Source: Eledone cirrhosa (Eukaryota). Taken from it: a DNA stretch of 64,000 nt. The notes beneath the pieces are model-generated. The model was not told where the DNA came from. It did not search any database and saw only the letters and a program-made list of their open reading frames with translations. Below, in pieces: positions 3,107 to 4,714 of the stretch (position 1 is the first letter of the stretch; the number at the start of each line of letters is the position of its first letter). Made by a program: the position numbers and the translations under genes. The stretch is from the NCBI GenBank assembly GCA_964016885.1, contig OZ024762.1, positions 27,528,001 to 27,592,000 of the forward strand. Reading direction: 5' to 3'.

Positions 3107-3356
3107 TAGATAATTTAATATATCAACTAACATAAGCGCACAGATGCACGCCCATGCTAGCAAATACACAGGTTATGTCATAGTACCTAGGTGGTTCAAT
3201 GCAGGAGAATGCAGAACAATAATATAAAAGACGTAAAATAAGAAAATATTTTTTAAAAAATCCAGTCCTCGCCAGCTGTTCGATCTACCGAATTATTATT
3301 ATTTTTATATGAGCCGCCAGTGTCCGCACATTGCCTGGAGACTTAACTGAGAATAG

Positions 3357-3438
3357 ACTCCCTGATGACGCAATGAATTCTCGACAGTTGGATTACGTAA
3401 CTGTCTTTATCCCATTGCAGAAACTAATTAGTTGGAGT
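3357..3438 (+). ncRNA. Type-I hammerhead ribozyme with extended stem II (family A, copy 1)
   Basis: actcc-CTGATGA-c gcaatg...gacagtt/aactgtc...cattgc a-GAAAC-taatta-GTT-ggagt. Confidence 0.85.
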
Positions 3439-3913
3439 GAAAATTTAAGTAAGTAAGTAAAAATTTTTTTTAAATTTTTTTTAAAAATATTTTCTTATTT
3501 TACGTCTTTTATATTATTGTTCTGCATTCTCCTGCATTGAACCACCTAGGTACTATGACATAACCTGTGTATTTGCTAGCATGGGCGTGCATCTGTGCGC
3601 TTATGTTAGTTGATATATTAAATTATCTATATTTATCTCCAAATCACTGATTTGTCGAGCAAACTTGCCAAAACCACTTCTAAAAAAATTTTTTGGGGTG
3701 TTAGTAGGCGTCAGTCATCTTACCATCCCATTCCTTCTAACTAGCCTCTGTGTCACGTGATTGATTCTTTAGAATCGGCCATTCGACCTGAAGCAGTGAG
3801 AATTTCGGTACATAGAATCCAGTCCTCGCCAGCTGTTCGATCTACCGAATTATTATTATTTTTATATGAGCCGCCAGTGTCCGCGCATTGCCTGGAGACT
3901 TAACTGAGAATAG

Positions 3914-3995
3914 ACTCCCTGATGACGCAATGAATTCTCGACAGTTGGATTACGTAACTGTCTTTATCCCATTGCAGAAACTAATTAGTTGGAGT
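3914..3995 (+). ncRNA. Hammerhead ribozyme (family A, copy 2)
   Basis: Same sequence as 3357-3438. Confidence 0.85.
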
Positions 3996-4471
3996 GAAAA
4001 TTTAAGTAAGTAAGTAAAAAACTTTTTTTTAATTTTTTTAAAAAATATTTTCTTATTTTACGTCTTTTATATTATTGTTCTGCATTCTCCTGCATTGAAC
4101 CACCTAGGTACTATGACATAACCTGTGTATTTGCTAGCATGGGCGTGCATCTGTGCGCTTATGTTAGTTGATATATTAAATTATCTATATTTATCTCCAA
4201 ATCACTGATTTGTCGAGCAAACTTGCCAAAACCACTTCTAAAAAAATTTTTTGGGGTGTTAGTAGGCGTCAGTCATCTTACCATCCCATTCCTTCTAACT
4301 AGCCTCTGTGTCACGTGATTGATTCTTTAGAATCGGCCATTTGACCTGAAGCAGTGAGAATTTCGGTACATAGAATCCAGTCCTCGCCAGCTGTTCGATC
4401 TACCGAATTATTATTATTTTTATATGAGCCGCCAGTGTCCGCGCATTGCCTGGAGACTTAACTGAGAATAG

Positions 4472-4553
4472 ACTCCCTGATGACGCAATGAATTCTCGAC
4501 AGTTGGATTACGTAACTGTCTTTATCCCATTGCAGAAACTAATTAGTTGGAGT
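4472..4553 (+). ncRNA. Hammerhead ribozyme (family A, copy 3)
   Basis: Same sequence as 3357-3438. Confidence 0.85.
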
Positions 4554-4631
4554 GAAAATTTAAGTAAGTAAGTAAAAAAAAAAAAAAAAAAAAATGTTTT
4601 ATTTTTTTAAAAAATATTTTCTTATTTTACG

Positions 4632-4714
<83 letters not shown>

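Follow-up and report, generated by a model that had tools for sequence, protein, structure and literature searches.

Animal retrozymes were described by Cervera and de la Pena (2020, PMC7229834) as 150-450 bp in length, and most of the metazoan circles treated there leave the hammerhead free; a blocked hammerhead is described there for plant retrozymes, for viroids and for some mussel circles. The survey of Li, Clavereau and Pollet (2026, bioRxiv 10.64898/2026.07.22.740005) gives retrozyme units of 51-972 bp with an origin from Penelope-like elements (PLEs), and records cleavage in one of nine Xenopus retrozyme dimers. In both sources the case for PLEs as the movers of animal retrozymes is built on hammerheads in common, on co-occurrence and on sequence trees. 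PLE insertions themselves bear a 30-40-bp tail, often at one end only (Craig et al. 2021, PMC8557442; Arkhipova et al. 2013, PMC3846280), which was placed in vitro between two internal start sites of reverse transcription (Frangieh et al. 2024, PMC11167929). The same in vitro work on an anole PLE reported that hammerhead cleavage is unneeded, that unprocessed RNA is the main template and that both strands use the same start sites, and hammerheads of the PLE type have been described as weak (Cervera and de la Pena 2014, PMC4209133).

We analysed a window of 64,000 nt (G000:C23:27528001-27592000, from a genome of 3.0 Gb), in which an initial annotation, made from the sequence alone, had proposed a tandem array of about 2.5 near-identical, non-coding hammerhead units. 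The array at window positions 3108-4637 consists by self-alignment of 2.47 head-to-tail units of 557/558 bp that are 99% alike; the 557-nt and 558-nt monomers lie four substitutions and one gap apart, and the units at this locus carry private differences (Table 1). No ORF of note was found in the 557-bp unit (across 125 family units the longest ATG frame has a median of 27 aa and a maximum of 102 aa), nor were any terminal direct repeats (LTR) found beyond the units themselves. The description of the units as proposed was borne out. An inverted stub had also been recorded at one end, and its presence is confirmed, but what had been overlooked is that it represents a second, apparently separately primed arm with an end of its own. 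The 3' end of the forward arm is a short site, S, at unit position ~77-78, followed by (TA)n, and that of the inverted arm is a long site, L, with a tail of ~120 nt, again followed by (TA)n; the two arms are joined head-to-head with an overlap of 2 nt. The near-invariant palindrome within the unit may be put forward, by inference only, as a candidate internal promoter element.

Table 1. Features of the 557-bp element, its host repeat and its relatives, in window positions.
Feature	Positions	Strand	Remarks
Host element, left part (~479-bp-unit tandem family)	2555-3040	+	core 2852-2858, predicted cut after 2882
(TA)n tract left of insertion	3040-3107	.	target
Inverted arm	about 3108-3260	-	unit positions 43 to ~197, 98% identical to unit
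Forward arm	3259-4637	+	2.47 units, 5'-truncated at unit position 383
Hammerhead 1, type I	3341-3454	+	CUGAUGA core 3362-3368, GUU triplet ends 3433, predicted cut after 3433
Monomer 1, cleavage site to cleavage site	3434-3990	+	557 nt, self-alignment
Tail, unit 1	3511-3628	+	~118 nt between sites S and L, long conserved hairpin inside
Anti-junction segment	3729-3744 (unit 1), 4287-4302 (unit 2)	+	pairs with both sides of the cleavage site
TCACGTG palindrome	3753-3759	+	near-invariant (118/125 units)
Hammerhead 2	3898-4011	+	CUGAUGA core at 3919, GUU triplet ends 3990, predicted cut after 3990
Monomer 2	3991-4548	+	558 nt, self-alignment
Hammerhead 3	4456-4569	+	CUGAUGA core at 4477, GUU triplet ends 4548, predicted cut after 4548
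(TA)n tract right of insertion	4638-4711	.	target
Host element, right part	4711-4828	+	ends at the 479-bp family's long end site
Third window member of the 557-bp family	19958-20136	-	5'-truncated, one hammerhead, S end
Second window member of the 557-bp family	25270-26261	-	541-nt unit, 78% identical, two hammerheads

Three type I hammerheads were found, one intact in each unit and with cuts predicted exactly where the initial annotation had set them. Stem I is in two parts, 5 bp proximal and 5 bp distal; an extra C precedes G10.1-C11.1, and stem II, of 6 bp and opened by G-C, leads into an internal loop and, beyond it, another hairpin, while an extra A precedes GAAA and stem III is palindromic. 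In an alignment of 37 of the 42 non-redundant hammerheads of the family (five damaged or duplicate arms being omitted) there are 82 double changes against 27.5 in shuffles, none of 500 of which scored as high, a count that is inflated by kinship among the aligned rows. Pairing is kept in 95% of the cells, compared with 33-47% in slid controls, and one stem II pair is present in all four Watson-Crick forms. A core pattern with a stem II of 40-70 nt has 9,065 matches in the genome, and a 25-nt motif at the cut has 5,650 exact matches, the reversed control giving 0 in both cases. Because the fold covaries and the core is abundant where its reversed control is absent, the hammerhead repeat is not a product of chance; the alignment indicates, moreover, a fold under selection. 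At the gathering score Rfam has no match in the window, and at E up to 10 it leaves the hammerheads of the 557-bp family unmatched, finding only the weak HH9 of the 479-bp family (18.6 bits) besides microsatellite noise; the long stem II is probably why the former are missed. Three places, ~18712(-) in the window and the loci L065 and L084, show another hammerhead-like motif whose stem II is again long.

The window element belongs, as a young copy, to a large family that is dispersed and mobile. A search with the unit returned 1,613 candidate places, of which 39 were scored, nearly all 94-100% identical. The analyses that follow use the 39 best-scoring loci, 60 of the 62 loci from the first 100 motif matches on contig C1, chosen by position, 35 loci from divergent subfamilies and 60 variant-core records. 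Altogether 125 distinct complete units were recovered, all non-coding, 507-571 nt in length and with identity down to 64%. A tree of 54 non-redundant units is ladder-like, with the window subfamily at one tip, and this shape together with the uniform length of 507-571 nt suggests a long independent life of the family. Insertions have a median of 757 bp, and at least two same-strand hammerheads are present in 21 of the 60 position-sampled loci; since insertions are this short although the lineage is old, arrays must be regenerated. Long arrays of about 8 units (G000:C4:181.13 Mb) and of 11 or more (C1:152.49 Mb) were also seen. The latter array (G000:C1:152493289-152499184, L255-L259) comprises at least 11 units of ~529 nt, clearly diverged from each other, and belongs to an older subfamily with A replacing C after the core. 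Besides its S end, the second window member has a short inverted L arm.

Insertion ends follow a strict pattern. Typed 3' ends fall at two sites only, S at ~77 nt and L at ~195-197 nt after the cut, some 120 nt apart and both followed by (TA)n. Inversions that end in S on one side and in L on the other make up 57 of 99 loci, and no locus has S+S or L+L, where independent choice of end by the two arms would make about half of the pairs alike; a further 32 combine one typed end with one 5'-truncated end (17 S, 15 L), and 10 have an untyped end. Both ends could be typed in 12 of the 35 loci from divergent subfamilies, and all 12 are S+L. The longer arm ends at S in 26 and at L in 28 of 54 inverted loci. 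No relation links the inner end of one arm to that of the other, and any gap or overlap at their junction is small. An origin of the inversion by snap-back was rejected, as only 4 of the 54 loci have inner arm ends no more than 5 nt apart; two separately primed arms fit better, since inner ends are rarely close and either arm may be the longer. Microsatellite flanks are present on both sides at 83 of the 99 loci and on at least one side at all 99. A target-site duplication was sought, but with (TA)n on both flanks any duplication would be masked.

Because two-site, one-tail ends match those of published PLEs, we read them as the footprint left by target-primed reverse transcription of the PLE kind, the tail being longer than usual. 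The initial annotation had attributed the copying to Penelope-type machinery, and S+L ends, (TA)n targets and a coding RT-GIY-YIG family with a like signature all agree with it. That coding family, typified by locus L045, has its own hammerhead, (TA)n targets and a tail of ~60 nt, and its inverted copies are S+L in six cases out of six.

The insertion is nested in the internal (TA)n of another hammerhead repeat, with a unit of 479 bp, a circumstance that had escaped the initial annotation (window 2555-3040 and 4711-4828 are parts of this family). A repeat of 170 bp occurs on both sides of the insertion because this host repeat flanks it, and was discarded as a candidate target-site duplication for that reason. 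The 479-bp family is younger than the 557-bp family, and its internal (TA)n is a target for other elements. Its copies (G000:C17:3829258-3835286, C4:39602638-39609528 and others, L261-L280) are 96-98% identical and form arrays of up to 14 units, with two end sites ~58 nt apart. In 20 loci of this family ends are clearly S+L in 10 and probably so in 4, 5 are not inverted or are cut off, and one is L+L, an exception to the S+L rule. It is a good candidate for a circle test of the same kind. Another repeated element, with a long internal inverted repeat, lies in the flanks of L097, L099, L123, L124, L146, L066 and L180 and at window ~19780-19900; it too terminates in (TA)n, and a single tract frequently serves both it and the 557-bp family. 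In the window, a telomere-like TAACCC block at 42430-43233 is followed by a 49-bp tandem array at 43210-43930.

A coding partner was sought in several ways. The initial annotation had called for a genome search for tandem copies without an adjacent ORF, and such dispersed copies are what was found: a PLE frame continuous with the unit occurs in none of 194 fetched records (39+60+35+30+30, some overlapping, and a small part of the family). PLE pieces near family copies are set apart from them by (TA)n, and arms traverse whole units back into the hammerhead without meeting coding sequence. As no examined copy adjoins a coding PLE, we classify the 557-bp repeat as a non-LTR retrozyme. Among the matches listed, none links the unit to the 3' regions of 22 GIY-YIG ends in the fetched loci, and none reveals a common upstream part in an all-against-all comparison of 268 flanks, in which other repeats share the (TA)n targets. 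Patterns with a short stem or variant core recovered only deletion derivatives and another non-coding subfamily, with no coding partner among them.

The window contains several PLE families in their own right. An RT and GIY-YIG family with a cysteine linker occupies window 2-1186(-), continuing into L031, with relatives at L070-L076, and is Neptune-like by the description in PMC8557442. Young relatives have intact 796-residue frames, with a further open-looking stretch upstream in another frame and a long microsatellite-rich 3' region downstream; as a partner this family was rejected, 20 loci of the intact 796-aa family carrying a different 3' end. The coding Penelope-like family of L045 (L045:7077-9998(-)) is represented at 26331-29364 as an inverted pair, at 56891-57547(-) and at 23569-25207, and comprises an RT, a cysteine linker and a GIY-YIG-like end, with a stop-free frame of 974 residues in L045. 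Penelope-like pieces from other families are a 609-residue frame with an RT and a weak GIY-YIG match, at 53794-55620(-), and a GIY-YIG fragment at 32476-32916(-).

The copies also carry information about their template. In 39 loci the units within one insertion differ at 0.36% of positions (139/38,214) and opposite arms at 0.43%, against a median of 1.64% between loci and 0.28% for the nearest locus. At seven diagnostic sites, which are linked and represented by at most 24 loci each, one arm has the same allele as the opposite arm in all 103 of 103 comparisons; at position 74, for example, nine loci are C|C and 15 are T|T. Multi-copy loci are likewise fixed for one allele at the seven sites, which split the young subfamily, with three exceptions that represent junction misalignments or a private change. 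L106 and L122, each of which is two adjacent insertions, were omitted from the haplotype analysis. A chimera of two haplotypes was observed at L113:1308-2188, where the units switch mid-unit from an older to a younger haplotype, either through a template switch between two RNAs or through gene conversion. Most of the sites at which the units of an array differ are private (75 of 93), and the patterns are almost never common to different loci. The cleavage site is crossed 214 times by 149 arms, with a maximum of five crossings in one arm, and breaks within -2..+4 of the cut number 2 against 3.2 expected in 209 passes. An apparent pile-up of 5' ends at the cut (10/149 against 3.2) came from query register and the choice of full-unit matches, and was gone on re-test.

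Rolling reverse transcription, as predicted in the initial annotation, accords with this read-through and with one haplotype per insertion, and the simplest reading is of two cDNAs primed on one continuous RNA. Such a template is a circle or an uncut multimer, because a cleaved linear monomer would yield just 77 or 197 nt before running out. Between these the circle would be favoured by the need of short, randomly truncated insertions in an old lineage for some way to regain units.

A further feature of the unit bears on the predicted circle. A consensus fold computed from 12 units pairs bases 1-6 of the monomer with columns 303-308 and its final six with columns 314-319, in a segment about half-way round the unit. 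As a partner for the 16-nt junction this anti-junction segment ranks first in 111 of the 113 units with the anchor motif, 12 units lacking it; in a subfamily whose 5' end is longer by one base, both stem I and the segment change and the pairing is kept. In predicted circles the helix displaces stem I in 8 of 12 units (window unit, 0.88 against 0.07). It exceeds the best shuffled match in only 6 of the 12, and in the window's own subfamily 8 of 30 shuffles are as good. The predicted fold of the whole monomer is more stable than shuffles as a linear molecule (z -3.4) and as a circle (z -2.9). In these models the segment may be a viroid-like block of the hammerhead junction, although the helix could act in a linear multimer too; a conserved junction block is a feature of plant retrozymes and viroids in an animal element.

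Read-through of the cleavage site would also follow if the PLE copied an uncut, linear transcript of an array, with hammerhead and blocking helix serving only to tune its processing, and a young, homogeneous source would account for the single haplotype, which weakens the circular reading given that the nearest loci are so alike. Unprocessed RNA is what the anole PLE used in vitro (PMC11167929), PLE-type hammerheads are weak and few Xenopus dimers cleaved, all of which count against the circle, as do the GUU triplet and the extra core A of the window hammerhead; long arrays of about 8 and of 11 or more units do exist. To keep its arrays long, such a scheme would need expansion at the DNA level or a small number of long source loci, since random 5' truncation shortens arrays at each generation, and yet the lineage has reached 36% divergence. 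Nor does a shared uncut transcript sit well with unit differences that are mostly private and almost never recur between loci, and it leaves the strong covariation of the ribozyme without a reason. On balance we regard such a template as unlikely. A cleaved linear monomer, its ends held by the anti-junction helix or stem I so that the reverse transcriptase jumps from the 5' to the 3' end, is very unlikely: both ends are predicted to stay together in either fold and a few arms do stop at or beside the cut (e.g. L125, L062 and L100), yet such stops are not in excess, and the junction sequence in the family alignment is the uncut one.

That the unit is just the pLTR of a coding PLE outside the sampled copies is highly improbable, even though all of its end features are those of PLE pLTRs as given in PMC8557442 and PMC3846280 and the sample covers no more than a small fraction of the 9,065 cores. 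Arms that pass through whole units into the next hammerhead, the missing joined frame in 194 records, the separation of nearby PLE pieces by (TA)n, the different 3' end of the intact 796-aa family and the constant length of every subfamily all speak against it. The initial annotation had itself raised the prospect of an assembly artefact, and the locus does lie among microsatellites, with its inversion junction bridged by none of the public contigs. The element is nevertheless present in public contigs from four runs, with the tandem join in runs X1, X5 and X6, a presence that speaks neither for nor against expression. A like architecture is shared by many contigs, the units carry private differences, and a DNA-level satellite does not have the fixed ends, truncation, inversion and RNA covariation of this family; either explanation is hardly credible.

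The reading that we prefer is that of a non-coding retrozyme copied into (TA)n by a PLE enzyme, most likely from a circular RNA monomer, to which we give a probability of about 0.58. That the repeat is non-autonomous and mobilised by a PLE is very probable, and that its copies had a circular template is rather probable; it is the structure of the copies, a matter of sequence, that suggests copying from circular RNA. An array of two or more units would be transcribed, and neighbouring hammerheads, probably as stem III dimers, would cut slowly to release monomers of ~557 nt, which a host ligase would close. The anti-junction helix would then switch the ribozyme off in the circle. A PLE reverse transcriptase-endonuclease, probably a dimer, would nick both (TA)n strands and start two cDNAs from a single RNA, with one start at S and the other at L. 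Synthesis of each would proceed around the template over a random length, after which head-to-head joining of the two truncated cDNAs, or loss of one of them, would leave a fresh, transcribable array. In its most specific form, as a viroid-like circle of ~550 nt, self-locked by an antipodal helix and written by a two-site-priming Penelope RT dimer, the proposal is tentative and carries somewhat less than an even chance. Were it true, the family would be a natural read-out of how inverted, one-tailed Penelope insertions form, and a small non-coding substrate for rebuilding the Penelope insertion reaction. Strict S/L pairing and a common haplotype provide a testable model for inverted and tandem forms in PLE transposition, and thousands of copies with young subfamilies offer a practical system for a circle test.

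In sequence the 557-bp family has what is described for animal non-LTR retrozymes: tandem units that are non-coding and carry a single type I hammerhead, few units per array, low GC, no LTR, PBS or PPT, and PLEs in the same genome. The initial annotation had considered the unit unusually long; it does exceed the 150-450 bp of PMC7229834, but falls inside the 51-972 bp of the bioRxiv survey. It is longer than the 170-400-nt units whose circles were demonstrated, and differs further in its hammerhead, which is of PLE type with an extended stem II and not canonical, and in a junction predicted to be blocked, unlike most metazoan retrozymes in PMC7229834. Twenty-four of 57 Xenopus retrozyme families matched a known element, nearly all PLEs, whereas for the 557-bp family no matching pLTR was found among 20 loci of one PLE family or, in the matches listed, among the 22 GIY-YIG ends. 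From the plant LTR retrozyme, with type III hammerheads in two LTRs, PBS/PPT and a 4-bp TSD, it differs in its type I hammerheads and tandem units.

With EN+ PLEs, as published, the family shares 5' truncation, partial tandems, an inverted 5' arm, an optional tail at one end, two internal RT start sites 3' of the hammerhead and (TA)n targets, but it has no RT and GIY-YIG ORF between pLTRs. Its tail of ~120 nt is three to four times the usual 30-40, and the rule of one tail per inversion, given in print as 'often' or 'optionally', is exceptionless here where both ends are typed. The PLE hammerheads of PMC4209133 resemble it in the extra base between 9 and 10.1, G10.1-C11.1, a long helix II, a short proximal helix I and a palindromic helix III suited to dimers; features not matched in the descriptions given there are the internal loop and second, covarying hairpin of helix II, the extra A before GAAA, the conserved distal helix I and the GUU triplet. 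Like MRC1 of Chlamys (PMC8557442), the family is a non-coding PLE derivative with multicopy head-to-tail insertions; MRC1-type elements have 3' ends like those of their autonomous partners and for the most part no hammerhead, whereas this family has one and, in the loci examined, no partner was found for it. A search with most of the subscription literature outside its range found no published report of the 557-bp family, of a ~120-nt tail or of a tail-pairing count. Neither the kind nor the size of the element is new, because units of 51-972 bp and a PLE origin have already been published, and the finding is a refinement rather than a new class of element: the integration footprint of PLEs, with two start sites and one-tail inversion, is carried here by a non-coding unit.
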